NCBI GenBank assembly: GCA_021827485.1
Contig: JAKAVM010000106.1
Coordinates: forward strand, 45,277-109,276
DNA length: 64,000 nt
Direction: 5' to 3'
Source: Actinomycetes bacterium
Lineage (GTDB): Bacteria > Actinomycetota > Acidimicrobiia > Acidimicrobiales > JAKAVM01
Shown: positions 3,762 to 48,499 of the stretch, in pieces
Layout of the letters: each line of letters starts with the position of its first letter
Position numbering within the stretch: position 1 is the first letter of the stretch
Position numbers and translations under genes: made by a program
The notes under the pieces: generated by a model
What the model was told of the DNA's origin: nothing
Database searches by the model: none
What the model saw: the letters and a program-made list of their open reading frames with translations, nothing else

Positions 3762-3784
3762 GTGATTAATCCTTCTCTACTTTC

Positions 3785-17416: not shown

Positions 17417-17485
17417 CTTAGCTTGACACCACCTTAGATTGATACCACCTTAGATTGATACCACCTTAGCTTGACTGCACCTTAG
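17414..17485. repeat. Tandem 16-bp repeat x4.5 (minus strand CTAAGGTG + 8 nt) filling the delta/alpha2 intergenic gap
   Basis: CACCTTAG recurs at 17414, 17430, 17446, 17462 and 17478. The first minus-strand unit carries the TAA stop of the chaperone gene. The last carries the GTG start of alpha2. Confidence 0.95.
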
Positions 17486-18174: not shown

Positions 18175-18191
18175 TAGTTTCTCCTTATCAA

Positions 18192-19334: not shown

Positions 19335-19341
19335 TTTCTAT

Positions 19342-20046: not shown

Positions 20047-20050
20047 TTTT

Positions 20051-22948
20051 TCAATGCCTTCCTAACTCCGAATTAGCTTTTGCAAAATCACAAGGTACTC
20101 CTCGATCAACCGGTATTGGTTGCCACTCAGCCATTGTGTAGTTGATGTGACCATACCCTCCAGCAAATGCGATCCACTTGACCATGCCTGCCTCAATTTC
20201 ATTAGCACCACTCCACTGATCGTACTGATGCCCATCCCAGCCGTTATATGAAATAATCTGACCAGGGCGAACCCCAGGGGATACTTTTGCTCGAGCGGTA
20301 AATGAAGATATATCGTTCCATACTCTTATGAGGTCGTTATCTTCTACTGAGCGCTGTTTCGCATCGATAGGGGATACTTCTATGTTTGGTTCACCGCGAT
20401 GAGTTTGAAGAATGATCGGATTCAACTGATTCATCGAATGAATACTCCACCTGTTATGTCCTGAGGTCATACGAAGTGGGTGATTTCCGCCAGAGAGTGG
20501 ATTGGGCTTGTGACAGGGAAGCTCTTCGTGGGCTTCAATCCACCAGGGGTGATCAATATAAAACTGCGCACGTCGAGCGTATGTCGGGAATGGAGCCCCT
20601 TTTTCTAGATGATCTCGAAAAGGCGTATGTGTCTTGTGGGTTTCAAACGGTGACGCCTGGGCCAAGGCAAACGGACTACCGCCCCATCCAATAAAGCGTT
20701 CATGGCCGACTTCACGCATCCTTGCAAGGTCAGTACGTTCTGGAAGTGTACCAGCGTAAGCCGAATCACGAATTATCTCATCAAAAAGCTTTTCCTCACT
20801 TTCGATGTAACCGTTCAATGTAAATGAATTCCACATCTCGTTCGGAATAAAAGATGCTCCAAATCTATTGGTGTACTCAGTAATTCCTCTAGCTTGTGCT
20901 CGCTCGGCAAATCTTTTCAGTATGATTTGGTAAATTTCCCACTCAGGTTTTGCTTCTCCAGCTGGATCGGCATTTCTGTCTGAAAAGGTTAGATTCATCA
21001 CATGAGAAGTCGGTATGTGTAGGTTAACCTTCTCATAATGCTGGGCAGCTGGCAGAACTATGTCAGAGTTGAGGCCAGTAAAATTGAGTCGGAAGTCGAT
21101 AGATACTATTAGGTCAAGCCTGTCCCATAGATTTTCACCTAACTGGGTCCAACCTCCCCTTGTGCGACGGAGCATGTTACCCCCGCACTCAATCAACATT
21201 TTAGGAGGCTCGTCTGGCCGTGGATGATCTAGACCTTGCCACCAACCGTTGGCTATTGCTTCCTCGAAGTATTCGTTGAATTTACGCGGTAGGGATTCGT
21301 CCCCCCACTCGGCCTTTTCCCAACGCTCCTTGAAGCCTCCTTGCCAGTACCACCAAAAGGCTGGAGGAGAACCAGTTTGCCTAGTCCCGGGAAAGATTCC
21401 CTGACTCTTGGCGATCATGCGCGATAACTCTCTCACAGCAAGCTCATCGGTGGTGATACTGGGATCTGCTTTGCGAAGAGCTTCTGTTGCAGCTTGTTGG
21501 GTGGAGAATAGCTGTTCTGCACCTTCAACACCGGGGACGGTTTTGACCATAATCGTAAACATGCCATCTGCCATACCAATCATCCATGATCGGATCCCCG
21601 TGCCAGCCTTGCCCCAATTGCCAGTAACAGCAAGTAGAAGGCACATAGATCTTTCCATAAGGTCACCGTGGTAGTACTTGCAGGAATTCCATCCCAACAT
21701 TATGTCTGTGCGTTTCGAAGCAGCTTTACGCGCCAACGTTCGCACAACATCAGGGTGGATTCCAGTAATACTTTGTGCCTTTTCGGGTGTATAGTTCGCG
21801 TTTACGTGGTTTTTCAGCAGCTCCATGACTGGTGAAACCTGAACCTGCGTCCCATCACCGAGTGTAACTTGGTAGGTTCCTTCCAGGGCAACACTTCTTC
21901 CGTTCAATAGCAAGTTCCCCCTATTTGCTTCTACTAGACCGCTTTGAAGATCCCAGTGATATAGCTGGTCCTCTCTGGCCTTTGAGGTGGTCGCGCCCTC
22001 TTGGCTAGGTGCGTTCTCATCTGTTGACTCAAGGTCGCATTGACGCAAGAAGCGCTTATTGTCGAGTCGGACCAAGCACGGTAGATCAGTTTGCTCTGAG
22101 ATAAATGTTGTATCGGCGATCTCTTCTTCGAGAATTACTTGAACCATTGCTAGAGCAAGTGCTGCATCGGCTCCCGGAACAATTGGAACATGATAGTCGG
22201 CGTGCATATGTGATGCATTTAGGTCAGGAGAAATCGAAACGACTTCTGCTCCCTTATATCGTGCTTCGAGCATGAAATGATAGAACGGAATGCGAGTGAA
22301 AGCGGGATTCATGTGCCAAATCATTATGATCGGAAAGTGGAACCAGTCATCAGCTGATGAAGCAGGATTCCACTTTCCAAAAGTCTCATGGAGTCCAATC
22401 GAAAAATCGTTAAACGATGGGTGTAGGTCGAGAGTTCGTCCTCCAATTACATTGAAGAAACGGTCTGTTGGCATAACCGCGGCAACCTCAGGTGTTCCCT
22501 CGCGCACTATTGACTCAGGGCCAGCTTTTTCAATAGCATCCAACATGCCATCAGCAATCTCGTCAAGGGCTTGATCCCAAGATATCTGTTCCCATTTACC
22601 CTCCCCACGTTCACCAACTCGCTTGAGTGGATGTAAGACTCTATCGGCCTGATAAAGTTGCTGACTCCAAGAGGCACCCTTGTTACATCCCATAGGGTTG
22701 AAGTCAGGAACCCCATCTTCAACTACGGAAAATGTTGCCGCAGCCTCTTCGCGAACTACTTTGCCATCTGTGACATAGACTCTGAAAGGACAGTTGCCGG
22801 GATAGCAATCGACGCAATGAGTGCCCCAACCGACTTTATCCCAAGCCCAACGTGATCGTAAGTTTGCCTCGCTTGCTTCATGTGGCGAAAACGCAACCGT
22901 TTCGCTTGGTGCTTTGCTTTCCACGGAACTACTTTTTGCAAGAGTCAC
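20051..22948 (-). CDS. Type-II DMSO-reductase-family Mo-bisPGD catalytic subunit, paralogue 1 (alpha1), no Tat signal
   Basis: 965 aa. RSRWAWDKVGWGTHCVDCYPGNCPFRVYV plus NPMGCNKG form the FS0 motif. NDFSIGLHETFG sits at the Asp-ligand segment. The GTG start is preceded by AAGGAGG (plus-strand 22959-22965). No RR motif in the N-terminus. Confidence 0.9.
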   Translation of the reverse strand: MTLAKSSSVESKAPSETVAFSPHEASEANLRSRWAWDKVGWGTHCVDCYPGNCPFRVYVTDGKVVREEAAATFSVVEDGVPDFNPMGCNKGASWSQQLYQADRVLHPLKRVGERGEGKWEQISWDQALDEIADGMLDAIEKAGPESIVREGTPEVAAVMPTDRFFNVIGGRTLDLHPSFNDFSIGLHETFGKWNPASSADDWFHFPIIMIWHMNPAFTRIPFYHFMLEARYKGAEVVSISPDLNASHMHADYHVPIVPGADAALALAMVQVILEEEIADTTFISEQTDLPCLVRLDNKRFLRQCDLESTDENAPSQEGATTSKAREDQLYHWDLQSGLVEANRGNLLLNGRSVALEGTYQVTLGDGTQVQVSPVMELLKNHVNANYTPEKAQSITGIHPDVVRTLARKAASKRTDIMLGWNSCKYYHGDLMERSMCLLLAVTGNWGKAGTGIRSWMIGMADGMFTIMVKTVPGVEGAEQLFSTQQAATEALRKADPSITTDELAVRELSRMIAKSQGIFPGTRQTGSPPAFWWYWQGGFKERWEKAEWGDESLPRKFNEYFEEAIANGWWQGLDHPRPDEPPKMLIECGGNMLRRTRGGWTQLGENLWDRLDLIVSIDFRLNFTGLNSDIVLPAAQHYEKVNLHIPTSHVMNLTFSDRNADPAGEAKPEWEIYQIILKRFAERAQARGITEYTNRFGASFIPNEMWNSFTLNGYIESEEKLFDEIIRDSAYAGTLPERTDLARMREVGHERFIGWGGSPFALAQASPFETHKTHTPFRDHLEKGAPFPTYARRAQFYIDHPWWIEAHEELPCHKPNPLSGGNHPLRMTSGHNRWSIHSMNQLNPIILQTHRGEPNIEVSPIDAKQRSVEDNDLIRVWNDISSFTARAKVSPGVRPGQIISYNGWDGHQYDQWSGANEIEAGMVKWIAFAGGYGHINYTMAEWQPIPVDRGVPCDFAKANSELGRH

Positions 22949-24878: not shown

Positions 24879-26615
24879 GTGTCAGATGAGCGCTTTGATG
24901 TGGTAGTAATTGGAGGAGGCCACAATGGCTCCACAATCGCTGCCTATTTGGCCAAGTCCGGTTTATCAACCTGTGTGTTGGAGAGCCGCCCTGAGTGTGG
25001 TGGGGGCCAAGAGAATACAGAGGTCCGACCGGGATTTCGGATTGACCCCCATGCAACCTACCTATATGGAGGTGCAGCTCCGGGCTTTGACCAGCTAGAG
25101 CTTTGGAAATACGGGATGCGCATGGTTTATTACGCATCTATGGCTGGAGTTGCGACCTTGGACGGTCAAGCCGCCAATCTAGGTGGACGGTGGCGGCCCG
25201 ATCTCGGGGATGCAGCGATCAAACGCTATTCGCCAAATGACCTGGAAGGCCCCGGTAGGATTTTTGACCAGTTAGGTGAAGGCCCATCGAGAGAGTTGCT
25301 CCGTGCACTGTTTTGGACCCCTCCTTTCCCTGAAGGTGCTGAGATAGATCCTAGAGACATGCCGTGGTGGAAGGTATTTCGTCAATATCTTCCAAATCTA
25401 TTTTTTGATGAACTTGTCGATATGAGTTACGTGGATTTCCTGGACAACTTTGTGCAGTGGGATCCACTGAAGGTGGTCGGCGCATTTGGCGCTTGGTATT
25501 GCGGTGCTCACCCGGATTGGGAAGGAATGTTACTTCAATCGCTTGGTGGAACACTTCTTTATTCCTATGCTTCGGGGGCCCCGCGCGGAGGTATGCACAC
25601 TTATGCGCATGCAATAATCCGATGTGCAATCGCCAATGGTGCCAGAGTAATGACAAATGCCCCAGTTGGAGAGATAATCGTCAATAACGGTCGGGCGGTT
25701 GGAGTTCGGCTCTCGGATGAGGCAGCATTCCCTGAGAAGACGATATGGGCGGATAAAGCAGTTATATCGGGAGTAGATGTAAAGCAAACCTTCCTCAAAC
25801 TTGTCGGTAAAGGACATCTAGACCCCTCTTTCACCCAGAGGGTAGATGACATATCGCTTAAAGGTGGAAGTTTATTTGTTATGTCGGTTATATGTCGGGA
25901 GTTGCCACGATATCACAATAAGGAGGAATACTTTCCTCAAGACGTTTATCCTTCATGTGTTATTGCTCCAGCGGACTCTTTTGAGTATTTTCGAACTCAA
26001 ACTCGCGATGCATATTCATACAAGAAGCCCCCAGAACTAACACCTGAACATCTCACTATGATGATATGCACGCACGATCCCTATGATTCGACGCGTTGCC
26101 CTGACGGATATCACGTACTGTCCCCAATATACTTGGAGGTGCCACCTCCACAATATGATGTAACAGGTGCGCAAGGCATCAACAGACACAAAGAAGAGAT
26201 AACTAAAGCGGCACTTGGAGTACTGCGTCAGTTGGCGCCGAATATGACGGAAGGAAATATAGTGGATGTATTCGTCAATACTCCATATGATTCGGAGTTC
26301 CGAAATGCTGGAATGGTCGGGGGCAACTGGTATGGAATTCGCCAGTCCGAGGACCAGTGGTTCTCAAACCGTCCACTCCCAGAGCTTTCGCGATATCGGA
26401 CGCCAATTGAAGGGCTGTATCTGTGCAACCAGACATCTCATCCTGGTGGTCTGTGTCTAATGGCGGTTCCATACAACCTCATGCACATTCTTATTGACGA
26501 TGGAATAGCTAACCCGGGGAGTTGGTGGTATCCGTCGCCCCACTACATGAAAGATCTAAAGCCAACTGCAAGTATATCCAGGAAAACAGCCTTGGAAACG
26601 GATGTCGTCAAATGA
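24879..26615 (+). CDS. FAD-dependent oxidoreductase, phytoene-desaturase (CrtI)-like, paralogue P1
   Basis: [38 protein letters not shown] (dinucleotide fold plus GG). C-terminal [18 protein letters not shown]. Confidence 0.85.
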
Positions 26616-28315
26616 GCGCAAGTAAAGCTGGTCTAGAAGGTGTGCAACCACTTAGGCGCAAGGAAGAGTTCAAAGTCGAACCATTAGAACATATTCTTGA
26701 TGAATTCCCGATCAAGTCCAAGTATGATGTAGTGATTATCGGGGCAGGACCTAATGGGTTGATGGCCGCAGCCTACTTGGCTAAATCAGGATTGAAAACA
26801 ATTGTCTTGGAACGCCGTCAGGAGATTGGTGGAGGACTAGCCACAGAAGAGACCCTTTTCCCTGGGTACTATACGAATCCTCATGCCTTTTATCACATGA
26901 TGACTGACTATATGCCGATAATGTCTGATTTCAACCTGCAAGACCATGGGCTCTATTTTGTAAAGCCCAATACTCAAACCTCTGCAATTTTCTCGGATAA
27001 CTCCACTTTGACCTTGTACAACCAGCATGAAGATACCAAAGATTCGATTGCTAAATTCTCTGCTAATGATGCTAGAAGATTTGGGAAAGTCATGCGATCT
27101 TGGCGCAAAATTGTGTCAGAAATCATAGCGCCCGGCACTTATGTTCCTGCTATGTCGCCAATCGACATGATTGAGCGTTTCGAACAAACCGAAATGGGTA
27201 GGGAAGTACTTAGGCTATCGGAGATGTCACCACTAGAGATAGTGGAAGAGAACTTTGAAGATGACAGAGTTCGCGCGCTGATGCTTTATGTATCTTGCAT
27301 GTGGGGACTTGACCCAAACGAAAGTGGTTTAGGTTTTATGGTACCACTTATGATAGATCGAGCAATGAACAAGGCCCAGTGCTATGGAGGTTCACACAAA
27401 CTTGCAGGTTCGCTCTCGCGTGAAATCTTGAAAGCTGGCGGTACGGTTCTTGACAATGCTCAAGTACAGAGAATTATTGTTGATAATGGCCAGGCAAAAG
27501 GAGTGGAACTTTACGATGGAAGAGTAATCGAGGCAAATGTAGTACTTTCTAGTTTGCCACCACCGATTACTTTTGGGAGTTTGATCGATCAGACTATGGT
27601 GCCCCAAGAGATGGCAGAGGCCGCCAACCTCTGGGAGTGGGATAAGTGGTCTTTTTTCACCATGTCAATGGCTACCGAGAAAGCTCCCTACTACCAGTGT
27701 GATGATCCATCGGTAAACGATGCACTGATGGTGATTATGGGCTTTGACACTTGCCAGGCGGTCCGAGAGCATTTTGCTGCGGCAATTGCTGGAGAGATTC
27801 CACGAAATATTGGAGGACATGCAAGCGTGGAGACTCGTTATGATCCAACCCTTCCTCGGATACCGGGCCATCACGTCAGCTTTTTCCAGATCCATGCTCC
27901 ATACGACGTGCCAGGGGGATGGGACGAACAAGGACCAATTCTAGCCAACGAACTTAGCGCATTGTGGAAGCGTTCCTGCCCTAATTTAGTGGACGAGAAT
28001 ATCGTTATGCGCTCTATTGAAACTCCAGTTGATATTGAGACTCGTTTGACGTCAATGGTTAGAGGATCAATCAAACACGGCGATTACCATCCCTTGCAGA
28101 TGGGAGTATTCCGCCCGCACGATTCTTGTGTGGCAGGTAGATCTCCTATTGAAGGCTTATACCTTTGTGGCGCGTCTTCTTACCCCGGGGGTTTAGTGAT
28201 TGGTGGACCTGGTTACATAGCAGCCGGATCGGTTGTAGAGGATCTTGATGTTGCTAAGTGGTGGAGCCCACCGCAATACGTTCAACGATATTCGGCACAA
28301 TATATGAGTTCTTAG
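26612..28315 (+). CDS. FAD-dependent oxidoreductase, CrtI-like, paralogue P2
   Basis: The ATG at 26612 overlaps the P1 stop (ATGA). [39 protein letters not shown]-terminal [18 protein letters not shown]. The ORF is open from 26522, but that portion lies inside P1. Confidence 0.85.
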
Positions 28316-28318
28316 ACT

Positions 28319-28354
28319 GGGCGGGACGCGCACCATGGGGGCGGGCGGGCCGGG
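28319..28354 (+). other. G-rich tract with canonical G-quadruplex-forming motif
   Basis: GGG(319-321) C GGG(323-325) ... GGGGG(337-341) C GGG C GGG CC GGG(352-354). Embedded in a GC-rich stretch (about 28316-28410) just after the P2 stop. Confidence 0.6.
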
Positions 28355-28533
28355 TTGCTTGGGCTCGCGCTGGGCGCTGGGGTTCGCGCTGCGGTCGGCA
28401 AGCGCCAGGTGGCCTTTTTGGCCATAAGTTTGCTTATGGGACTAATGGCCCTATTGAGGCCGGGCTGCTTCGATCAGAATGTGGAATGTGACACCTTCCA
28501 CTTCGCACGCACAGCTTGCGGCCAAGGAACAAT

Positions 28534-28588
28534 TTGATACTTCGGGCGGCCAATTGCCGAAAAGTATGATTGATACTTCGGGCGGCCA
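28534..28588. repeat. 19-bp perfect direct repeat TTGATACTTCGGGCGGCCA x2, period 36
   Basis: Copies at 28534-28552 and 28570-28588. They straddle the probable MerR start codon (28566). In the long ORF they encode (F/I)DTSGGQ twice. Confidence 0.95.
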
Positions 28589-29375
28589 GTCGAGCCAAGG
28601 TGATTGTGGAACTCGCCACGACCAAAAGTATCCAGCCGGTTATCTATCCATCTCAGAGCTGATCAACGCCACTGGAGTCACCAAGGCAACAATTCATCAT
28701 TATATTGCTCGTGGCCTTCTCCCTAAGGCGTTCAAGACTGCACATAATATGGCATATTATCCTCCGGAATGTATCGAAATAATCAATGCAATTCGGGAGC
28801 TTAGGGCTAGGCACTTGCCACTAGCGCAAGTCGCGGAAATTCTATCTGAGCATGATCTATCAAAAATATACGCTTTACTTAGACTTGCCGACGAAGAGAG
28901 CTTACTGCTTGCTTCATACGTAAATACCACCACACCGTCAAAGTCAAGGGAGGAGCTCTTGCAGCTGAGTGGACTCGCTCCAGAGGACCTTGACTATTTG
29001 GAGGAATTGGGATTAGCAAGGCGTGAAAATGAAGATTCATACGATGGGCTCACAGTTGAACTGGCCAAATCACTTGCTGCAATGCGGTCTGGAGGTATGA
29101 CCGAGGAAACCGGTTTCCATCCGCGAGATATAGCACTTTACAAGCGGGCAATTGAACAAGTTGTAGAGAGCGAAATCGCATACTTTGAAAGTCGGCTATT
29201 AGGCAAGATTGCGCCAGAAGAGATTCCTAGTGTGATGAGAGCGGCACTTGAACATGCTGAGAGTATCTGTGTGCTGACGCGAAGACGATTACTTCTTGAT
29301 GAAATTGAGAAGGCTGCCAGCAACCGTTCGCATATAAAGAAAACAAACCAAACTAGCCATAGGAGGCAACAATGA
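28566..29375 (+). CDS. MerR-family transcriptional regulator
   Basis: HTH LSISELINATGVTKATIHHYIARGLLP followed by a long helical C-terminal domain. The ORF is open from 28479, so the start is uncertain. Confidence 0.75.
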   Translation: MIDTSGGQSSQGDCGTRHDQKYPAGYLSISELINATGVTKATIHHYIARGLLPKAFKTAHNMAYYPPECIEIINAIRELRARHLPLAQVAEILSEHDLSKIYALLRLADEESLLLASYVNTTTPSKSREELLQLSGLAPEDLDYLEELGLARRENEDSYDGLTVELAKSLAAMRSGGMTEETGFHPRDIALYKRAIEQVVESEIAYFESRLLGKIAPEEIPSVMRAALEHAESICVLTRRRLLLDEIEKAASNRSHIKKTNQTSHRRQQ

Positions 29376-29752
29376 AAATTCGTTCGCGTGGATTAGGTCG
29401 TCGTGAGCTACAAATGGATCTGCATGAGTTCAAGATGACCAAAGAGGGCAACGAAGTAGTCCTCAGTGGGGTAACCCATGCCCCAGTTACTTGGGAGACC
29501 AGTATCCGATTTTCGGCGGAAGACATCGGGGGAATGATAAAGGTGGCAATCAATCCTAAAGTATTATTCCTTGCACTTAGGTGGGCACTTCGCAGAAAAG
29601 ATAGTCCACAGGATGCACCTGTCATCTCCTGGGAACGCAGGACGACACATTCCGGTCTTAAGGGTCATTCACTTTCGAGTAAGGCTAATGCAAGTGAGCT
29701 CAGTTCTGACGAGTTAGAAAGTATTGACGAGTCAGAGGCACAAGGTAGCTAG
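29372..29752 (+). CDS. Hypothetical protein, translationally coupled to the MerR gene
   Basis: The ATG overlaps the MerR stop (ATGA). 126 aa with an acidic/Ser-rich tail. No motif recognised. Confidence 0.45.
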   Translation: MKIRSRGLGRRELQMDLHEFKMTKEGNEVVLSGVTHAPVTWETSIRFSAEDIGGMIKVAINPKVLFLALRWALRRKDSPQDAPVISWERRTTHSGLKGHSLSSKANASELSSDELESIDESEAQGS

Positions 29753-29852
29753 CAACCTTTAGTTTTTATCAGGAACCTGGGGCCCTGTCGACAGATGCGG
29801 GCCCTACATGGCAAGGCAAGATGCGAATCTTCCTATTAGAAAAGGGGGAAGT

Positions 29853-33117
<3,265 letters not shown>

Positions 33118-39162: not shown

Positions 39163-39384
39163 ATGCCGAAAACACGAACAACACTGACGATAGATGAAGG
39201 CCTCCTGCGATCAGTGAAGGTTAGGGCAGCACGTTTAGGGAAGGGAGAGAGCGAAGTGATTGAGCAAGCTATCCGGAGGGAACTTGGTTTTGAACTACTT
39301 GACCAGCTTTGGGAGCGAAATGCCTTGGCTGAAGACGATGCCACCCGTTTAGCCTTAGAAGCTCAGCACGTAACGCGAGATTAA
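39163..39384 (+). CDS. Ribbon-helix-helix (CopG/VapB-like) antitoxin
   Basis: TTLTIDEGLLRSVKVRAARLGKGESEVIEQAIRREL is an RHH pattern. 73 aa. Lies 15 nt upstream of the PIN gene. Confidence 0.7.
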   Translation: MPKTRTTLTIDEGLLRSVKVRAARLGKGESEVIEQAIRRELGFELLDQLWERNALAEDDATRLALEAQHVTRD

Positions 39385-39399
39385 TCAAATCAAGCATAG

Positions 39400-39816
39400 A
39401 TGCGAGCAGTCGTTGATGTTAATGTTTTTATTTCAGCATTCCTAAGCCGAACTGGGGCCCCAGCAAGTGTAATTCTCGCTTGGTTAAACGGCGATTTTGA
39501 AATGATTATTTCACCTAAGCTCTTGGCGGAGCTTGAGAGAGCACTTGGCTATAGAAAGTTTAAAAATCGTATCTTGCCTTCAGAAGTCAACGAGCTTGTC
39601 GCTCTAGTACGATCGGAATCTATTATTGAGGAGGACAGTGAAGATTTGGCTACAATTCGCTCGGCTGATCCCGGAGACGATTACTTGATTGCCTTAGCGC
39701 TAACGACTCGATCAATACTCGTCTCCGGAGACTCTCATCTATTAGTCTTAGCAGACAAGGTACCAGTTTATACCCCAGCTACATTCTTAGAGAGGCTTTC
39801 TACTTCAAATTGGTAG
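39400..39816 (+). CDS. PIN-domain toxin (putative toxin-antitoxin system toxin, PIN family)
   Basis: MRAVVDVNVFISAFLS..., DPGDDYLIALA and ILVSGDSHLL carry the acidic PIN residues in the usual order. Confidence 0.8.
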   Translation: MRAVVDVNVFISAFLSRTGAPASVILAWLNGDFEMIISPKLLAELERALGYRKFKNRILPSEVNELVALVRSESIIEEDSEDLATIRSADPGDDYLIALALTTRSILVSGDSHLLVLADKVPVYTPATFLERLSTSNW

Positions 39817-40255: not shown

Positions 40256-41968
40256 GTGGAATTCCTCGCTCCTCTTCGCAAAGGTACTGAATTAAATCAA
40301 GTCGAGAAGTGGAAGCTTGAGAGAAATCCTCTCGACGTGTACGACTCTGTGATCAATACCTATTCAAAAAACGGAGTCGAATCAATTTTGAGCGTAGAAG
40401 GCGAACAGGAAAGACTCAAGTGGGTAGGGCTCTATCCACAAAAGCAAGGGGGAGATGCTTTCATGATGCGGGTCAAAGTTCCCGGAGGGAGAATTACAGC
40501 CCAGCAAGCAGAAAAGCTGGGTGAGCTTTCTTTGAGATATGCCAAATCTCCAAGTTCAGATGCAGTTTTCGGAAATTGCTACTGCGATATAACGACTCGT
40601 CAATCAATTCAGCTGCACTGGTTGCCAATCGGCGACATTCCAACTATTTGGCATGAGCTAGAAGGAGTAGGACTCACAACTGTCCAGGCCTGTGGTGATT
40701 CTTCTAGGAACGTACTTTGCTGTCCTGTCTCGGGAATTGATGCGAATGAGATTTTTGACGCATATCCAATTGCAACTGCAATATCAGAGTTTTTTACTGG
40801 AAATCGCGAGTATTCAAACTTACCTCGTAAATTCAAGATCAGTGTTACGGGATGTCAAGAAGATTGTGCCCAAGCTGAGATAAATGACATTGGTATGTGG
40901 CCAGCAAAATTAGAAGATGGGACCTTAGGATTCAATCTTCTGGTTGGCGGGGGATTATCCGATGGGCCGCGGATGGCTTCCGATATTGACGTGTTCGTTC
41001 CTCTGGAGCAAGCAGTTGAAGCGACGAGGGGGATAGCACAGCTCTTCGGTGAGCTCGGCAATAGAGAAAATCGTGGTTTGAGCCGAATGAGATATTTAGT
41101 ACAGGAGCTAGGCCCTGAAGGATTTCGAAGCGAACTTGAAAAGAGAGTTTCATTTGGCATGCTGCCCGCGGGAGAAAGTCTAACCAAGGGTTATAGGGGT
41201 GATCACATTGGTATCCATCCTCAAAAAGAGCAAGACGTTTTCTATGCAGGGCTCAACGTTTTAGTAGGTCGTCTAAAGGCACCAGAGCTAATAGAGTTAG
41301 CACGCCTAGCTGCGACTTATGGCAACTCAGAGATCCGCTTGACCACCGATCAAAATGCAATCATCTCAGGGATCAGTAAAGATAAATTAGAGGAGTTTTT
41401 AGGTGAGCCAGTTCTCAAGACGATCTCTCCTTTCCCAAAGCCATTTGAGCGAGGAGCCGTTGCATGTACAGGCAACGAGTTCTGTCGGTTTGCAATTGTT
41501 GAGACAAAGGCCCATGCAGCCAAGTGGGCAAAGGCTATGGATGAGAAATTTTCGTCACTGATAGAAGGTGAAACACGCTTGAATGGGAGCGCGACAAGCT
41601 CTTGGCAAGATAAAGTACAACGGCAAGAACAAATAAGTTCGCAAGTTGTAAGGATGCATTTTTCGGGCTGCCCTGCTAGCTGTGCTCAGCCCCAGATTGG
41701 AGATATCGGGTTTCGGGGCGACACGGCCCATCGCAACGGTGAAATTGTGGAAGCCGTAGATATTGGACTCGGAGGTTCCCTTGGATCAGATGCTAGCTTT
41801 ATCGATTGGGTTGAAGGTGCCGTGCCTTCAGATGAAGTTCCGCAAGCATTGGTAGGGCTTTTTGAAGGGTATTTTGGACAGCGACGGGAAGGTGAGTCCT
41901 TTCGAAACTGGACAAGGCGAGTACCGAATCCCCAACTACGAAAAATACTTTCTAGTGGGGCAAAGTGA
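40256..41968 (+). CDS. sir: Assimilatory siroheme-[4Fe-4S] sulfite (or nitrite) reductase hemoprotein, NirA/Sir type
   Basis: 570 aa. LKWVGLYPQKQ..FMMRVKVPGGRITAQQ, TTRQSIQLHW, and the cluster/siroheme Cys motifs ACTGNEFCRFA and FSGCPASCAQPQIGDIG. The sulfate-assimilation context favours sulfite. Confidence 0.9.
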   Translation: MEFLAPLRKGTELNQVEKWKLERNPLDVYDSVINTYSKNGVESILSVEGEQERLKWVGLYPQKQGGDAFMMRVKVPGGRITAQQAEKLGELSLRYAKSPSSDAVFGNCYCDITTRQSIQLHWLPIGDIPTIWHELEGVGLTTVQACGDSSRNVLCCPVSGIDANEIFDAYPIATAISEFFTGNREYSNLPRKFKISVTGCQEDCAQAEINDIGMWPAKLEDGTLGFNLLVGGGLSDGPRMASDIDVFVPLEQAVEATRGIAQLFGELGNRENRGLSRMRYLVQELGPEGFRSELEKRVSFGMLPAGESLTKGYRGDHIGIHPQKEQDVFYAGLNVLVGRLKAPELIELARLAATYGNSEIRLTTDQNAIISGISKDKLEEFLGEPVLKTISPFPKPFERGAVACTGNEFCRFAIVETKAHAAKWAKAMDEKFSSLIEGETRLNGSATSSWQDKVQRQEQISSQVVRMHFSGCPASCAQPQIGDIGFRGDTAHRNGEIVEAVDIGLGGSLGSDASFIDWVEGAVPSDEVPQALVGLFEGYFGQRREGESFRNWTRRVPNPQLRKILSSGAK

Positions 41969-41998
41969 AATTAGCTATGAATCGTAAAGAGAAATAAA

Positions 41999-43327
41999 GT
42001 GCCAGCAAATCTTTTCAGCTTCCCGCAAGAAACGATATCGCTAGGCTTTGCTATTCGCGATCAAATGAATTCCATTTCCGAGGCTCCAGGCAAGACTTGG
42101 TTTTGGGAACTTGCAGACGCTGTAATTGATGCTGGTCGGTGCGTGCAGTGCGGTGTTTGTGTTGCAGCCTGCCCTTCGGATTCGATTGGTGTATCGGAAG
42201 CGGGGTTGCCAAAGCTTGTAAAGATGTGCACGGGATGCTCATTGTGTTGGGATTTTTGTCCGAGGGGAGGTTTGAGATATGAAGCAACTTGGCGCGAGTC
42301 AGCCCAGGTCCAGAGCAGCGAAGTAAAAGATCCTCAAATATCAAAAGTATCGTTGGGAAGGCGCAGCAAGACTACCCCAAACAAGATAACCCCAACGAAT
42401 GTTACTGCGCTTGGTGTCTTGGAGAAAGGCTATGCAGCTCGAGTACCAACGAGGATTGAAGGAGCCCAAGATGGCGGAGTTGTATCGCAAATCCTAATTG
42501 CTTTACTCGAAGCTGGAGAAATTGATGGTGCTCTTTTGGCAAAGCAAAGTAGCACACAAAGCTGGAAGGCCGAACCATATCTTGCACAAACGCCACAAGA
42601 TGTACGTACCTCTGCGGGTAGCTATTACAACCAAACAATGGCGTTAGGACATTTAGATCTATCGAAATATGATCTGCCGAAAAATCCTCGTATAGCGATG
42701 GTTGGAACTCCATGCGAAATTCAAGGGATCAAGGCGTTACAGGCAACCAGATGGTCAAGAGGAAGAAGCTTAGTAGATTCAATTGGCCTTACAATTGCCC
42801 TGCTTTGCACTAAGAGTTTTGACTACGAAAAATTGATACTAGGGGAACTCAAGCAGAAGCGAGGGATTGATCCGAGTGAGATTGGCAGGATCGATGTGAT
42901 CTACGGAAAACTAATTGTTGATTCGGTTAAAGGTTCAACGCTTGTTGCCGAGCCGATAAAGAATTTTCACGGGGCTGCGCTTCGAGGTTGTGATGAGTGT
43001 GCTGACTTCTTGGGTCGAGCCTCAGACATATCGGTGGGCAGTGTAGGAAGTGTGGCTGGCTGGTCAAGCGTATTGGTTCGAACTGAACAGGGTATGCGGG
43101 CCTTTGAAAAAGCTTGGCCTAAGCTCCAAGTCAGGGATTTGGACAACACTCAAGCTCTTGAGAAACTTGATGCTCTCGACAAAAAAATTGCATTCAACGC
43201 GTTACAACGAGAGTTTGATCCCGATGGCCCCCTCTTTATTGAGTTTGAGGATCACTTAGAAAACTATATGGATTCAGATCGCCAAGTTGTTGGCAGTAGC
43301 CAGCGTTCAAGGAAGGAAGCAGTATAA
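41999..43327 (+). CDS. FrhB/FpoF-family flavo-iron-sulfur protein (coenzyme F420 hydrogenase/dehydrogenase beta-subunit-like) with N-terminal 2x[4Fe-4S] ferredoxin domain
   Basis: CVQCGVCVAACPSDSI and CTGCSLCWDFCPR. Followed by GAQDGGVVSQILIALLEAGEIDGALL, SAGSYY and MVGTPCEIQGIKAL, typical of the FrhB N- and C-domains. Confidence 0.8.
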   Translation: MPANLFSFPQETISLGFAIRDQMNSISEAPGKTWFWELADAVIDAGRCVQCGVCVAACPSDSIGVSEAGLPKLVKMCTGCSLCWDFCPRGGLRYEATWRESAQVQSSEVKDPQISKVSLGRRSKTTPNKITPTNVTALGVLEKGYAARVPTRIEGAQDGGVVSQILIALLEAGEIDGALLAKQSSTQSWKAEPYLAQTPQDVRTSAGSYYNQTMALGHLDLSKYDLPKNPRIAMVGTPCEIQGIKALQATRWSRGRSLVDSIGLTIALLCTKSFDYEKLILGELKQKRGIDPSEIGRIDVIYGKLIVDSVKGSTLVAEPIKNFHGAALRGCDECADFLGRASDISVGSVGSVAGWSSVLVRTEQGMRAFEKAWPKLQVRDLDNTQALEKLDALDKKIAFNALQREFDPDGPLFIEFEDHLENYMDSDRQVVGSSQRSRKEAV

Positions 43328-44671
43328 GTGACAAGTCTACTTGATAGTCGAATTAGGCCAGTTGCAGTTAGGGATCACTTCGAGGCTGAAGTTGAAGAAG
43401 TAAGTCCGTTTACACTTTGTATTCCCGAGGAGGTCGATGGACTTCGTGGCAAGATTATGGACTCGATTGTCCAGTCTGGAGCTGACTCATCGTCAATTAT
43501 CGACCTGACCATCGAACTCCAAGAGTTCCTATGGAAGGGGTGGGAGCCAACTTTGACTTACTGGGGGATTGGATGGGGGAGTTTTCTTGATATTGTTAGT
43601 GGATATAGAAGAGAACTGTGGCTTTGGTGCATGCGTGAGCGCACTTGGCAACAGTGCATCAGTGGACTTGCAGGAAGGTTAGCTCGGAGAACTTTAGATG
43701 AGGCAACTAAGGAGCATCCGTTGATGGCGTCTGTAAACCAAGATCGCTTTGCTAATCGCGAAGCTAGTACGAACAACAAGTTATCTCATTTGGACGAACT
43801 TGAGTCACATGCCATATTTGTTATGAGAGAAGTGGCTGCGGAATGTGAAAGACCGGCGCTACTATTTTCAGGGGGGAAGGACTCAGCAGTTCTTCTTCGC
43901 ATAGCCGAGAAAGCTTTTAGGCCCGCAAGGTTTCCGTTCCCAATTCTTCATGTCGACACCGGGCATAACTTTCCTGAAGTTATCGAGTATCGTGATCGCC
44001 AGGTTGAACGGCTCGGCGAGAAACTGATAGTCGCCCAAGTTCAGAGGACAATTGATTTAGGCCGGGTGACTGATCCGGGACCTGGGGCAAGCAGGAATCG
44101 TCTGCAAAGTGTAACTTTACTTGATGCTATTTCTGAATACGAGATAGATGCAGCTATAGGCGGAGCCCGACGTGATGAAGACAAGGCCCGTGCTAAAGAG
44201 CGAATTCTATCGTTCAGAGATGCTCTTGGCCAGTGGGATCCACGCAATCAACGTCCAGAACTGTGGCATCTTTACCAGGGGCGAGTTCGTCAGGGTGAGC
44301 ATTTGAGGGCTTTCCCACTCTCGGATTGGACTGAATTGGACGTATGGCAATACATAGCTCGGGAAAAGATAGAATTACCTCCGATCTATTTCGCACACTC
44401 AAGGAAGGTCATCGAGCGATCGGGAATGCTACTTGCTCTAAGTGAGTGGGTTCAGCCAATGGGACAAGAGGAGATAATCGAGGAAGTTGTTAGATTTAGG
44501 ACCGTTGGTGATGCAACTTGCACCGGGGCAGTTAGGTCTAGAGCAAGTACTATTGAGGAGGTCATAGCCGAAGTAGCTTCGTCGAGAGTAACAGAGCGGG
44601 GAGCCACACGAGCCGATGATAAGTTTTCTGAGAGTTCAATGGAAGACCGAAAGCGCGAAGGCTATTTCTAA
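43328..44671 (+). CDS. cysD: Sulfate adenylyltransferase subunit 2 (CysD) fused in frame to a 132-aa N-terminal domain of unknown function
   Basis: The CysD core runs from about residue 133 (LSHLDELESHAIFVMREV..LLFSGGKDS PP-loop .. GYF C-terminus). GTG at 43328 directly follows the upstream TAA and has AGGAAGGAAG upstream. An internal ATG at 43724 has its own AAGGAG. Confidence 0.85.
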   Translation: MTSLLDSRIRPVAVRDHFEAEVEEVSPFTLCIPEEVDGLRGKIMDSIVQSGADSSSIIDLTIELQEFLWKGWEPTLTYWGIGWGSFLDIVSGYRRELWLWCMRERTWQQCISGLAGRLARRTLDEATKEHPLMASVNQDRFANREASTNNKLSHLDELESHAIFVMREVAAECERPALLFSGGKDSAVLLRIAEKAFRPARFPFPILHVDTGHNFPEVIEYRDRQVERLGEKLIVAQVQRTIDLGRVTDPGPGASRNRLQSVTLLDAISEYEIDAAIGGARRDEDKARAKERILSFRDALGQWDPRNQRPELWHLYQGRVRQGEHLRAFPLSDWTELDVWQYIAREKIELPPIYFAHSRKVIERSGMLLALSEWVQPMGQEEIIEEVVRFRTVGDATCTGAVRSRASTIEEVIAEVASSRVTERGATRADDKFSESSMEDRKREGYF

Positions 44672-44743
44672 ACAGTGCAAGAATCTCGACAACAGATTAT
44701 TTCTATTTCTAAACAGTGCAAGAATCTCGACAACAGATTATTT
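44662..44743. repeat. Perfect 41-bp tandem duplication that includes the last codons and stop of cysD
   Basis: CTATTTCTAAACAGTGCAAGAATCTCGACAACAGATTATTT at 44662-44702 and 44703-44743. The cysD TAA is at 44669-44671. Confidence 0.95.
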
Positions 44744-44765
44744 CTGTCAAGTGAAATTATAAGCC

Positions 44766-46019
44766 GTGGCTGATTTATTACGATTTTGTGCAGTTGGGTC
44801 GGTGGATGACGGTAAATCTACGCTAATTGGAAGGTTGTTGCACGACACGAAGCAGCTTTTTGATGATCAAGTTGAAGCGATGGCCGAGGCAAGCAAACGT
44901 CGTGGTTATGGTTCGGTTGAGCTAGCTTTTGCTACTGATGGATTGCGGGCTGAGCGAGAGCAAGGAATAACAATCGATGTAGCTTATCGTTATGCTCAGA
45001 CCCCGCGGCGTAAGTTTATCATTGCAGATTGCCCTGGACACGAGCAGTATACACGCAATATGGCTACGGGTGCTTCTACTGCTCAGGCTGCAATAGTGGT
45101 CGTAGATAGCGCAAAAGGTTTACGCGAGCAAACGCGAAGGCATCTGTGCATTGCCTCTCTAATGGGTGTACGTCGGGTCATTGTCTGCGTAAATAAGATG
45201 GATTTGATTGATTGGTCACGAGAGGTCTTTGATCAAGTGACCAATGAAATGAAAAGTTTGGCCGACAAGCTCGGCGTTGAAGAGTTTCATTCACTTCCGA
45301 TTTCAGCATTATCTGGACAAGGTGTGGTGGAGCCTGCGCATGACGCTCCTTGGTATAACGGCCCCACTTTTTTGGAGTTGATCGAGACTATTCCGGCCTC
45401 AAGTGTTGACATGGGTAACGGAGAATTTCGTCTTGCCGTACAGTGGATCTTACGGAATCCCGACGGAACAAGAGGATATGCCGGAATGCTCTCTGGGGGT
45501 CCTATAAGAACCGGTGAAGCAGTGGTGATACAGCCATCGGGTAGGCAAAGTAAGATTGTATCGGTTTATAATTTCGATGGACCACTAGATGTTGCCTGGC
45601 CAGGTAGTTCTGTTACGCTTGCTATCGAAGGTGATATTGATATCTCCCGAGGAGATATGATTGTACCGGCAACAAGTAATCTCAGTTCGGTCCAAGAGCT
45701 AACTTTGACAGTGTGTTGGTTCTCTGATCGACCTCTTACATCCAAGAGCCGATTTGCCGTGAAACACACCACGAGACGGACTCCAGCCATTGTTTCGAAG
45801 ATACTTGGGACCATAGACGTCAATAATCTAGAGCTACAAGAAGCGGACGAGATTTGCGCTAACGAAATTGGGAGAATTGAAATTCAAGTTTCAACTCCTC
45901 TAGCTGCGGACGACTATATGTCAAATAGAACAACTGGCAGTCTGGTAATTGTTGATCCACATAGCAACGCGACACTTGGCGCGGCTATGGTTGAACGTTC
46001 CAGAGAATTCGTTAGTTGA
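44766..46019 (+). CDS. cysN: Sulfate adenylyltransferase subunit 1 (CysN GTPase), no APS-kinase domain
   Basis: GSVDDGKSTLIGRLL (G1), DCPGHEQY (G3), NKMD (G4). 417 aa, so no CysC fusion. Confidence 0.9.
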   Translation: MADLLRFCAVGSVDDGKSTLIGRLLHDTKQLFDDQVEAMAEASKRRGYGSVELAFATDGLRAEREQGITIDVAYRYAQTPRRKFIIADCPGHEQYTRNMATGASTAQAAIVVVDSAKGLREQTRRHLCIASLMGVRRVIVCVNKMDLIDWSREVFDQVTNEMKSLADKLGVEEFHSLPISALSGQGVVEPAHDAPWYNGPTFLELIETIPASSVDMGNGEFRLAVQWILRNPDGTRGYAGMLSGGPIRTGEAVVIQPSGRQSKIVSVYNFDGPLDVAWPGSSVTLAIEGDIDISRGDMIVPATSNLSSVQELTLTVCWFSDRPLTSKSRFAVKHTTRRTPAIVSKILGTIDVNNLELQEADEICANEIGRIEIQVSTPLAADDYMSNRTTGSLVIVDPHSNATLGAAMVERSREFVS

Positions 46020-46726
46020 ATAAGACTCAAGCTAGTGTTCCCCTCTATCCGGTAACGCTAGTTCTGTCAGGACAGCCTTGCCTCGTTGTAGGTGGTGGGC
46101 CAGTCGGTTATAGAAAGGTTCATAACTTACTCTTGTCACAGGCAGAAGTTACTTTGGTGGCTCCTGAACTTTGCCCACAGTTAGAACAACTTGCAAGTGG
46201 CAAAATGGCTGAAGAAGTTGACGAAGCGGGTATCGGTGACGCGCTTGAACTGAAATCTTTCAAGGTCCATAGGCGCGACTATGAGAAGGGTGAGGCGAGC
46301 AACTATCGGTTAGTTTTTGCTGCGACTTCAAATCGAAATGTAAATCGTCAAGTATTCCAAGATGCTCAAGAGGCTGGAATTTTTGTGAATACTGCTGATG
46401 ACCCCCAAGGATGTACTTTTATGTTGCCATCCATTGCAAGATTTGATCCTGTGACCATCGCTGTCTCCAGTGGCGGATCAAGCCCAGCTCTAGCGATTTG
46501 GATACGCAATCAAATTACGACTCATTTTGGGAGCAATCTTTCGGCAATCGCGCAGTTACTTTTTCGGGCCAGGTGTGTGCTCCACGATAAGGGCATTTCC
46601 ACGGAAGCAGTTGACTGGAACGAGATTCTTGAGACAGGTTTACTGGATATCGTCTCTCAAGGCGACCTTCAGGGAGCTGAACGATTCTTGATGAATTCCG
46701 TCAATACTCAGTTAGGGACTTGTTGA
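46016..46726 (+). CDS. Precorrin-2 dehydrogenase / sirohydrochlorin ferrochelatase (siroheme synthase N-terminal-domain type, SirC/Met8-like)
   Basis: LVVGGGPVGYRKVHNLLLSQAEVTLVAPE is a Rossmann fold. 236 aa. Start overlaps the cysN stop. The context is a siroheme-dependent reductase. Confidence 0.8.
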   Translation: MNKTQASVPLYPVTLVLSGQPCLVVGGGPVGYRKVHNLLLSQAEVTLVAPELCPQLEQLASGKMAEEVDEAGIGDALELKSFKVHRRDYEKGEASNYRLVFAATSNRNVNRQVFQDAQEAGIFVNTADDPQGCTFMLPSIARFDPVTIAVSSGGSSPALAIWIRNQITTHFGSNLSAIAQLLFRARCVLHDKGISTEAVDWNEILETGLLDIVSQGDLQGAERFLMNSVNTQLGTC

Positions 46727-46744: not shown

Positions 46745-47278
46745 ATGTCAGATAAGCAAATTAGTGTTCGTGGCGTGAGTATTGTCCGCAGTGTTTCCCC
46801 AAAGCTAAGTATATTTGGAGTGATTCTAGGTATCAGCGTCTTATTGACCGCTTGCTCTAGTAGCTCGACCGCTCTTCCGAATGCTAAAACATCACAAGCC
46901 GATATAAGTCATGCTTATTCAGTATTATTTGACTTATCAAATCCGTCAGTTGCACCCAAGATTGCAGTTGTTCAAGATGGTAGCTCTATCAAATCTTCTA
47001 TGGCCAAGGAACTCAGCTCACCGTTAGCCAAAGAGGCAAGTGGCGCTACAGTTAACAAAGTTAAAATATTGAGTGCTAGTCAATGTAAGGCAGAGCTACT
47101 CCCAAATCCATGTGCTTCGGTGAGTTATACAATTACCCTGCCTAGTCTCCCTACTGGAAATATGACTGGATTGAAAGGATACGCCGTATATCAGTCTGGT
47201 AAGTGGCTGGTATCTAAGCAAACAATATGTGGTTTATTTTCTCTGGCCTCTAATGGAATTACATTGAGTGGCTGCTAA
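46745..47278 (+). CDS. Lipoprotein, unknown function
   Basis: Signal peptide plus lipobox VLLTACSSSS. 177 aa. Confidence 0.5.
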   Translation: MSDKQISVRGVSIVRSVSPKLSIFGVILGISVLLTACSSSSTALPNAKTSQADISHAYSVLFDLSNPSVAPKIAVVQDGSSIKSSMAKELSSPLAKEASGATVNKVKILSASQCKAELLPNPCASVSYTITLPSLPTGNMTGLKGYAVYQSGKWLVSKQTICGLFSLASNGITLSGC

Positions 47279-47341
47279 CATTCTTAATATCTTGATGCGA
47301 CTAGAGTCGTAGGATAACAATAAAGGGAGGCTTCAATACCT

Positions 47342-48499
47342 GTGAATCGAATAAACTCCTTCGAAGGGGATCGTTATATCCTCGGTGAATTGCATGAGCA
47401 ATCTCCTCAACACTACTCAGCATGGTACGCTATTTGGGATAACAGTGATCCGAACCCAGAGTCTACTCCCATAGCCACTTTCCCATTCGGGCCAGAAGGA
47501 TGGGCTCAGGCTTGGCAGTACTTTATTGAATTTGAACCCTCTCCTAGGCCAGTGCCACGCCCACAGTTTGATCCTACGCAGGGTCCAAAGTTTGACCCTA
47601 CGGGTGTCCGAACATCCGAACCGACCACAAGTATTCCGCCGGGATATGCACCTCCCCAAGGGTTCAATCAACCATCGACCTGGGGAGCCACTTCCGCAGG
47701 ACCAGGCGCAGGTCCACCGAGAGGTCCCTATCAACCAACCTGGGGAACTTCGTTCCCCAATGGGCCAAATAGCAATGGCGCTTCAGGGGTAGAAGTCGCA
47801 TTTGAAGGTCCTACCAAGCAACGCAGACTTACCGTTGCTTTTAGAATCATCCTAGCTGTTCCACAACTGTTCGTCCTGTGGGCATTGACAGTTGCTCTGT
47901 TCGTTCTTGGGGTTATTTCCTGGTTTGCAGCACTATTTACAGGTGCGGTTCCCGATGGGCTAGCTGAGTTTATGAGGTCAGTAGTCATCTATAATGGCCG
48001 TGTCTCTGGTTACTTGGCTTTACTAACTGATCGGTATCCACCTTTTACCTTGGCGTTAGTTCCTTATCCGATATATATAGAGATTTATTCATCTCGGCTA
48101 AACAGGCTCGCCGTATTTTTTAGAATTATTCTTGTAATTCCGGCCTACTTACTCATCTCCTTGATGGGGGTTGGCCTAGAAATTCTTTTCATTATTACAT
48201 GGGTGATAGTTTTGGTGGCTGGCCAGATGCCAGATGTGATCTATCGGGCCATAGCAAGTATTACGCGTTATCAGATGCGACTCGGCGCATACTTTTTCAT
48301 GCTGACATCGACATATCCCTTTGGGCTCTTTGGCGACAGCGATATTGCCCCGGACCAATATCGACGCCCACTGATTCTTCCAACAGGCTCAATAGTTATT
48401 ATTTCAATATGTATTGCTATAGGAGTATTGCAGTTTATTTTGTCTCACTTTCAGCACGGTGGCATAGTTACGCCCGGGCCACATCCAGTTTGGCTTTAG
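47342..48499 (+). CDS. DUF4389-type membrane protein (two repeats) with soluble N-domain and Pro-rich linker
   Basis: RLTVAFRIILAVPQLFVLW...FAALFTGAVPDGLAEF...LLTDRYPPF, repeated as RLAVFFRIILVIPAYLL...LVAGQMPDVIYRAI...MLTSTYPF. Confidence 0.7.
   Translation: MNRINSFEGDRYILGELHEQSPQHYSAWYAIWDNSDPNPESTPIATFPFGPEGWAQAWQYFIEFEPSPRPVPRPQFDPTQGPKFDPTGVRTSEPTTSIPPGYAPPQGFNQPSTWGATSAGPGAGPPRGPYQPTWGTSFPNGPNSNGASGVEVAFEGPTKQRRLTVAFRIILAVPQLFVLWALTVALFVLGVISWFAALFTGAVPDGLAEFMRSVVIYNGRVSGYLALLTDRYPPFTLALVPYPIYIEIYSSRLNRLAVFFRIILVIPAYLLISLMGVGLEILFIITWVIVLVAGQMPDVIYRAIASITRYQMRLGAYFFMLTSTYPFGLFGDSDIAPDQYRRPLILPTGSIVIISICIAIGVLQFILSHFQHGGIVTPGPHPVWL

Follow-up and report, generated by a model that had tools for sequence, protein, structure and literature searches.

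A conserved small helical protein joined to CysD in a sulfate-assimilation operon of an Acidimicrobiales bacterium

We analyzed a 64,000-nucleotide stretch of DNA from an Actinomycetes bacterium of the order Acidimicrobiales (assembly GCA_021827485.1, contig JAKAVM010000106.1, positions 45,277 to 109,276; hereafter the window), in which the gene for CysD, a subunit of the ATP sulfurylase CysDN, carries 132 additional in-frame codons at its 5′ end. The open reading frame (ORF) at 43328–44671 is one polypeptide consisting of a small helical protein, a variable linker and a complete CysD. Judging from its sequence conservation, the small part (residues ~28–122) is a genuine protein family that current domain libraries leave unnamed, and it is close to certain that this conserved small protein is really translated as a fusion with CysD. 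We propose, with a probability of roughly 0.55, that the small domain, here joined to ATP sulfurylase, serves a putative sulfite reductase module of the F420 type as an accessory subunit or adaptor.

The 447-codon reading frame and the small helical family

An earlier note on this DNA had described a CysD frame open for 447 codons, and we found it as described, together with the two quoted peptides, FLWKGWEPTLTYWGIGWGSFLD and ELWLWCMRERTWQQC, in its translation. The GTG start at 43328 follows the upstream gene's TAA with zero spacing and no change of frame, and is preceded by the Shine–Dalgarno (SD)-like sequence AGGAAGGAAG; an internal AAGGAG and ATG, also claimed in that note, were likewise located. 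Pfam PAPS_reduct (PF01507) covers residues 176–400 (E 3.1e-40), and NCBIfam CysD profiles begin at residues 140–155 and reach residue 447, with scores above the cutoffs of NF003587 (437.5 bits; cutoff 195), TIGR02039 (418.3 bits; cutoff 396.6) and NF009214 (416 bits; cutoff 413). The gene for the partner subunit CysN lies beside the CysD core. The profile starts and the PAPS_reduct span thus set the extension over an ordinary CysD at ~132–140 residues. Given the base composition of the window, 132 codons would stay open by chance with P of about 7e-4. The identical 447-aa protein recurs on at least 24 contigs that were assembled independently, among them three NCBI metagenome-assembled genomes and ENA assemblies. 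A few nucleotide differences occur elsewhere in the operon; the frameshift or stop between the two parts that the earlier note had envisaged was found on none of these contigs. The same intact ORF on so many contigs excludes a sequencing artefact for practical purposes.

The family to which the extension belongs was revealed by an exhaustive profile search and a locus scan rather than by word-indexed searching. A word-indexed protein search with residues 1–147 returned a single homolog of 115 aa (P0001; 35% identity), a free-standing hypothetical protein whose gene, on a metagenomic contig, immediately follows an FrhB-like one. For the locus scan, one genome per species was scanned with the FrhB-like protein of the window, and the best 80 of at least 582 matching stretches were taken; these loci belong to Acidimicrobiales, Rubrobacterales and Chloroflexota. 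When a profile of the extension was run against the 81 fetched loci, it matched the ORF immediately 3′ of the FrhB-like gene in 77 of them, with E-values from 1e-15 to 1e-32. Two of the four remaining contigs stop at that point and two truly have no small ORF, so that 77 of 79 assessable loci carry it. Searched exhaustively with HMMER, a set of 1.84 billion representative proteins yielded 245 representative clusters (E up to 1e-3), mostly of 95–130 aa, and three divergent members sampled from them all adjoin FrhB-like genes. Free-standing homologs of the extension, which the earlier note had suggested seeking elsewhere, therefore exist as genes of ~100–130 aa in at least 70 related loci and in most of the 245 clusters. 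Some free-standing members carry long, repetitive C-terminal tails rich in Lys, Ala and Thr (KAKKTTKA..., up to about 240 residues; L042 6891–7745, L047 6843–8006, L056 4246–5607) that resemble basic nucleic-acid-binding or disordered tails.

Alignment of window residues 28–122 to 95 homologs brought out the core motifs L.P.EP, LW..W and Y.RELWLW..GERTW.Q...GL.GR..RR. Glu96, Trp100, Arg105 and Arg120 are invariant in the 96 sequences, and all four are present in the window; the near-invariant Gly103 is replaced by Arg in the window domain. No Cys is invariant or near-invariant among the 96 sequences, and many members have another residue in place of the window's Cys110. With this alignment, AlphaFold2 predicted an all-helical domain with a predicted local distance difference test (pLDDT) score of 91–96 in its core.

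We found no relative of this domain among characterized families or folds. Pfam and NCBIfam gave no match for residues 1–147, and a Pfam scan of the 96 members at E up to 1 gave no recurrent family. Foldseek returned no relative of the small domain from PDB (best E 3.5, template modeling score below 0.33) or from BFVD (best E 0.59), and the family profile found none among PDB sequences (best E 0.07, to a designed repeat protein). In the literature, we found no description of the small domain or of a bacterial sir–frhB–small module. The earlier suggestion of a novel partner domain in the sulfate pathway is thus upheld insofar as the family is without relatives in these four resources and occurs only in sulfate-assimilation clusters. 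It amounts to a new small-protein family, unnamed in domain databases and without a structural relative, that spans three bacterial groups and is confined to sulfate-assimilation operons.

Gene order and the origin of the fusion

The usual gene order in the related loci is cysH–sir–frhB-like–small, where sir encodes a NirA-type siroheme reductase, and 51 loci have cysH immediately upstream of sir. The pair of NirA-type reductase and FrhB-like genes itself occurs in at least 582 genome stretches from the three groups, usually with cysH ahead of it. The earlier note had placed the extension where cysH normally sits, between the reductase genes and cysD; this did not hold, as relatives of the module carry cysH upstream of sir. 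Across 78 loci, the FrhB-like stop codon and the start of the small ORF are directly adjacent or overlap (TAGTTG, TGATTG, TAAGTG, ATGA or GTGA), which identifies the zero-spacing GTG of the window as the family's normal, translationally coupled start. The window shares the family arrangement, in that the small domain directly follows an FrhB-like gene that itself follows a NirA-type gene, with its start abutting the upstream stop; it departs from it in that the domain is fused to CysD instead of standing free at ~100–130 aa.

Downstream of the small gene, a sulfate-activating enzyme is often encoded. In 40 Rubrobacter-type loci (within L003–L069), the small ORF is followed by a gene for a Sat-type ATP sulfurylase with PUA_2 and ATP-sulfurylase domains (for example, L006 7533–9358) and, where the contig is long enough, by cysC. 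In most of those 40 loci, the Sat start overlaps the 3′ end of the small ORF by about 6–21 nt; together with the FrhB-like junction, this means that the small ORF is coupled on both sides. Among Acidimicrobiales, the small gene is followed by cysD in L044, the order frhB::small, tauE, cysD, cysN is found in L088, and cysG-type genes come after the small ORF in some loci. The small gene therefore recurs between a presumed electron-donor gene and a sulfate adenylyltransferase gene of either non-homologous type, Sat or CysD.

In 38 of the 78 loci, the small ORF continues the reading frame of the FrhB-like gene after a single stop codon, which probably reflects common descent. Most of these same-frame junctions combine a TAG or TGA stop with a TTG start and come from Rubrobacter-type loci; the window combines TAA with GTG. 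Readthrough of the stop codon from the FrhB-like gene into the small ORF was considered and set aside, because the other 40 loci have the two genes in other frames with ATGA- or GTGA-type overlaps and a start codon is always present.

Fusion to CysD was found in four lineages, namely the window species (P0152) and those represented by P0153 (487 aa; L086), P0154 (469 aa; L054) and P0281 (446 aa; L002). Among the 120 best CysD matches, only these three other clusters share the extension of the window, and in a neighbor-joining tree of the 120 CysD cores the four fused proteins form an exclusive clade, as expected from a single fusion event that has been kept since. The tree thus points to a join that arose once, in the ancestor of a small Acidimicrobiales clade. 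This agrees with the earlier idea of a formerly separate small gene fused to cysD, since homologs are mostly free-standing and the CysD fusion is confined to this one clade. Within the clade, the CysD cores have diverged to 82–89% identity and the small domains to about 40%, and the linkers are mutually unrelated. The small domain is also fused to the C terminus of FrhB-like proteins (P0038, P0283–P0286, P0339, P0282, P0030 and P0138). A triple FrhB::small::CysD fusion was sought among long CysD matches and rejected; P0261, P0246, P0267, P0242 and P0213 lack the domain motif, and what extends them is either unrelated or spurious.

Loss of the small gene's stop codon is a plausible route to the fusion, which most probably would have formed in this way at a tightly packed small–cysD junction, with the former ribosome-binding site and ATG of cysD left behind in frame. 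The AAGGAG of the window is now read as Lys-Glu just beyond the point where free-standing homologs end, and the internal AAGGAG and ATG are probably what remains of the ribosome-binding site and start codon of the ancestral cysD.

The reductase module and the role of the small domain

The FrhB-like protein of the window matched the N-terminal, F420H2-oxidizing half of the F420-dependent sulfite reductase Fsr (7np8, 4e-32; 7npa) and FrhB among PDB sequences, and Foldseek on a model of a homolog returned the same set (Fsr, E 1e-15). From these matches, it is predicted to be an electron-donor subunit. The best PDB sequence matches of the reductase were plant ferredoxin–nitrite reductases (1e-102), ahead of NirA/SirA of M. 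tuberculosis (2.5e-69) and plant Sir (9e-32), and it scored below the NCBIfam cutoffs for both types; its action on sulfite is assigned from gene context. The FrhB-like protein is always accompanied by a NirA-type siroheme reductase, and by analogy with Fsr the two probably constitute a split sulfite reductase of two subunits, in which the FrhB-like partner would feed in electrons from F420H2 or another low-potential donor.

The small domain has no cofactor signature, is translationally coupled to its neighbors and is fused to them in some lineages, and is therefore most simply explained as a non-catalytic accessory subunit or adaptor of that sulfite reductase. We give an even chance to its being, specifically, a structural partner of the FrhB-like/Sir module. 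Natural fusions are a classic hint that proteins work together, and both the FrhB-like fusions in some lineages and the CysD fusion in this operon point to the partners of the domain. Fusion would place the small domain in 1:1 ratio with CysD and could anchor ATP sulfurylase (CysDN) at the reductase complex, which suggests physical coupling of sulfate activation with sulfite reduction. That the fusion serves as such a functional tether is a tentative proposal. A further extension of it, in which the small protein is the docking subunit of an undescribed bacterial sulfite reductase of three components (NirA-type hemoprotein, FrhB-like F420H2 oxidase and adaptor) and also binds Sat or CysDN, so that a sulfate-assimilation metabolon forms and the CysD fusion is a hard-wired version of the contact, seems unlikely as it stands.

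Several observations weigh against an adaptor role. In the 96-sequence alignment, the small domain has no recognizable cofactor or ligand motif and no conserved Cys, and its binding to partners is putative. An AlphaFold2 model of the natural FrhB::small fusion P0038 from an unpaired alignment reached a predicted template modeling score of 0.62, with a disordered 16-residue linker and an Fe–S domain below pLDDT 50, and speaks neither for nor against docking of the two parts. The electron donor of the FrhB-like protein is predicted from family membership, and some FrhB relatives, such as HCAR, use ferredoxin. No cysH was found near the operon, which leaves the intermediate step of any metabolon unaccounted for. 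Finally, overlapping or abutting genes fuse easily, and a fusion could be tolerated without being advantageous.

This last point leads to the alternative that survives best, a neutral fusion, in which the domain works only with the FrhB-like/sulfite reductase pair and its attachment to CysD is a tolerated lost stop without functional coupling. The small ORF abuts or overlaps both neighbors in most loci, so that a single point mutation or indel would suffice, and the domain has joined whichever neighbor was at hand, the FrhB-like C terminus or the CysD N terminus. Moreover, the linker is long, variable and predicted with low confidence, and most Acidimicrobiales CysD proteins lack the extension. 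On the other hand, the fusion was kept through the divergence of both its parts, no re-separation is seen in four lineages of differing G+C content, and purifying selection on the domain is evident. We regard a neutral fusion as possible but somewhat doubtful.

A second alternative, raised in the earlier note, is that two isoforms are made, with initiation also at ATG 43724 yielding a free 315-aa CysD beside the 447-aa fusion. The perfect AAGGAG lies 9 nt ahead of this ATG, and the ATG occupies the position of the start of unfused CysD proteins, about 15–20 residues ahead of the LSHLDELES motif. However, AAGGAG+ATG motifs are not enriched in the window (6 against 4.35 expected; 27 of 100 shuffles reach 6), and the internal motif is thus within chance. 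Met133 is restricted to the cluster of the window's own species, with no aligned Met in P0153, P0154 or P0281 and no ATG in the linkers of L002 and L054. The claim gains no support from these comparisons, and we consider a second isoform improbable.

The small domain might instead be a regulator that binds DNA or a ligand, or an assembly factor for flavin, Fe–S or siroheme insertion into the neighboring proteins. Small helical assembly factors such as SdhE offer a precedent, and such a role would suit a small bundle of helices that has conserved Trp and Arg residues, ends in a basic GR..RR stretch and, in some members, bears the basic tails. Against it, neither a helix-turn-helix nor any other Pfam family recurs in the members, there is no fold match, and transcription factors and transient chaperones are not usually coupled stoichiometrically or fused permanently to enzymes. 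We judge this reading quite improbable.

Two remaining alternatives carry hardly any weight. A fortuitously open leader, with the gene beginning at ATG 43724 and the preceding 132 codons untranslated, would account for the internal SD and ATG and for the unconserved residues 1–27, but it is effectively refuted by homology: residues 28–122, which lie within the stretch (residues 1–132) for which the earlier note had wanted a conservation check, are strongly conserved as protein in dozens of genomes across phyla, their fold is predicted with confidence, the start position relative to the upstream stop is conserved, and an open frame of this length is rarely met by chance.

The absence of cysH from the cluster, which the earlier note had pointed out, extends to the whole window. 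A Hidden Markov Model (HMM) built from 51 CysH ORFs of related loci matched only CysD across the 64 kb, and weakly (E 2e-8), although it detected cysH of L088, used as a positive control, at 1.7e-93. In L002 and L086, the 13–21 kb that surround the fused gene likewise contain no cysH. Since the window CysN is without an adenosine 5′-phosphosulfate (APS) kinase domain in comparison with NCBIfam profiles and no cysH lies nearby, an APS reductase is expected elsewhere in the genome. That the extension itself substitutes for the missing APS/3′-phosphoadenosine 5′-phosphosulfate reductase, which the lack of cysH in cluster and window might suggest, can be dismissed, as about 50 related loci carry the small gene alongside an adjacent cysH, and the small protein is all-helical, has no conserved cysteine and shows no PAPS_reduct or thioredoxin-like signature in residues 1–147, the CysH HMM matching only the CysD part.

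The operon, its surroundings and known systems

Five closely packed genes on the + strand, from the reductase gene to a CysG N-terminal-type gene, span 40256–46726 (Table 1). Counts of promoter and terminator motifs inside the operon showed no excess over shuffle expectation.

Table 1. Coordinates of the operon genes and of the features within the CysD fusion
Feature	Position	Strand	Evidence
NirA/SirA-type siroheme sulfite (or nitrite) reductase, 570 aa; first operon gene	40256..41968	+	Pfam NIR_SIR and NIR_SIR_ferr, two stretches each
FrhB/FpoF-like flavoprotein, 442 aa, with N-terminal 2x[4Fe-4S] ferredoxin domain	41999..43327	+	Pfam FrhB_FdhB_N, FrhB_FdhB_C and Fer4 families
Shine–Dalgarno-like AGGAAGGAAG, 8 nt ahead of the GTG start	43310..43319	+	Direct sequence reading
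frhB-like TAA (43325–43327) abutting GTG start (43328–43330), same frame	43325..43330	+	Direct sequence reading
Variable N-terminal leader, residues 1–27	43328..43408	+	Unconserved across the family; AlphaFold2 pLDDT 57–75
Conserved small helical domain, residues 28–122	43409..43693	+	HMM matches in 77 loci; 245 representative clusters; pLDDT 91–96
Linker, residues 123–139	43694..43744	+	Length and sequence vary among fused lineages (alignment, junction DNA); pLDDT 63–68
Internal AAGGAG (43709–43714) and ATG (43724–43726)	43709..43726	+	Direct sequence reading
CysD (sulfate adenylyltransferase subunit 2) core, residues 140–447 and stop	43745..44671	+	NCBIfam profiles; Pfam PAPS_reduct
CysN (sulfate adenylyltransferase GTPase subunit), 417 aa	44766..46019	+	TIGR02034, 506 bits (cutoff 336); Pfam GTP_EFTU
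CysG N-terminal-type precorrin-2 dehydrogenase / sirohydrochlorin ferrochelatase (siroheme synthesis)	46016..46726	+	TIGR01470, 122 bits (cutoff 62.3); Pfam NAD_binding_7 and Sirohm_synth_M

Upstream of the operon, a ribbon-helix-helix (RHH) antitoxin / PIN toxin gene pair (39163–39816) lies between ctaG and the sulfite reductase gene, approximately where related loci carry cysH. The pair is missing from the otherwise near-identical strain contig L084 (GCA_027390325.1), which marks it as a strain-variable insertion. Two genes lie directly 3′ of the operon (46745–48499); one encodes a 177-aa Mtb12_C-domain protein and the other a DUF4389 membrane protein of 385 aa whose N-terminal half is rich in Pro and Gly. 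The Mtb12_C assignment comes from a precomputed Pfam listing of the identical gene on L082, and the position of this gene is kept in the relative L086.

Farther away, molybdopterin oxidoreductase genes occupy 2286–4666 and 14666–22948 on the − strand, with catalytic subunits of 916 and 965 aa. Each catalytic gene has a nearby 4Fe–4S (Fer4_11) partner, and an NrfD-type membrane subunit and another Fer4_11 protein are encoded further upstream. Four clustered genes resembling FAD-dependent amine oxidases or phytoene desaturases lie on the + strand at 24879–33117, with a MerR-family regulator gene among them (28479–29375).

The fusions draw attention to an undescribed candidate accessory subunit and to what is probably a new enzyme system of aerobic Actinomycetota and Chloroflexota, an apparently undescribed sulfite reductase of the F420 type in split form. 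The ~110-aa hypothetical proteins encoded after FrhB-like genes belong to the sulfate-assimilation pathway. Rubrobacter species can be cultivated, which makes direct experiments feasible.

Compared with canonical CysD of the E. coli or Pseudomonas type, residues 140–447 of the window protein match the curated profiles end to end and CysN is encoded next to it, whereas the ~130-residue N-terminal domain is absent from nearly all CysD proteins. The window protein is thus a new CysD architecture that arose through capture of an unannotated, pathway-specific small protein, and the annotation of the 447-aa "CysD" should show two domains. Merging of consecutive pathway genes into one polypeptide is also seen in the CysN–CysC fusions (NodQ, CysNC of M. 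tuberculosis; NF004035). Those fusions, however, combine two enzymes of known function, whereas the window fusion adds an uncharacterized non-enzymatic domain to CysD, and its CysN has no CysC part.

Another small protein of undefined mechanism beside a sulfite reductase gene in an actinobacterial sulfate-assimilation operon is CysX of C. glutamicum (fpr2-cysIXHDNYZ). This 82-aa protein, encoded between cysI and cysH, has four conserved cysteines and has been proposed to resemble ferredoxin; full growth on sulfate or sulfite requires it (PMC1266029). The description of CysX sets the small family apart from it, as the latter has no invariant cysteine, is all-helical and follows an FrhB-like gene; the positions of the genes also differ, since cysH, where present, lies upstream of sir in the family.

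The closest parallel to the reductase module is Fsr of Methanocaldococcus and Methanothermococcus (7np8, 7npa; PMC10229431), which likewise combines an FrhB-like F420H2-oxidase module bearing Fe–S clusters with a siroheme sulfite reductase. Fsr is a single polypeptide that uses F420, whereas the two halves in the window are encoded by separate genes, the reductase is of the NirA or assimilatory type, and the module would use F420 by analogy. A non-exhaustive scan of the window ORFs found no F420 biosynthesis genes. The solved Fsr and Frh structures contain no counterpart of the small protein, the aligned columns in Foldseek ending before the small domain. The sir–frhB pair therefore looks like a split, assimilatory counterpart of archaeal Fsr that stands outside the Fsr family.

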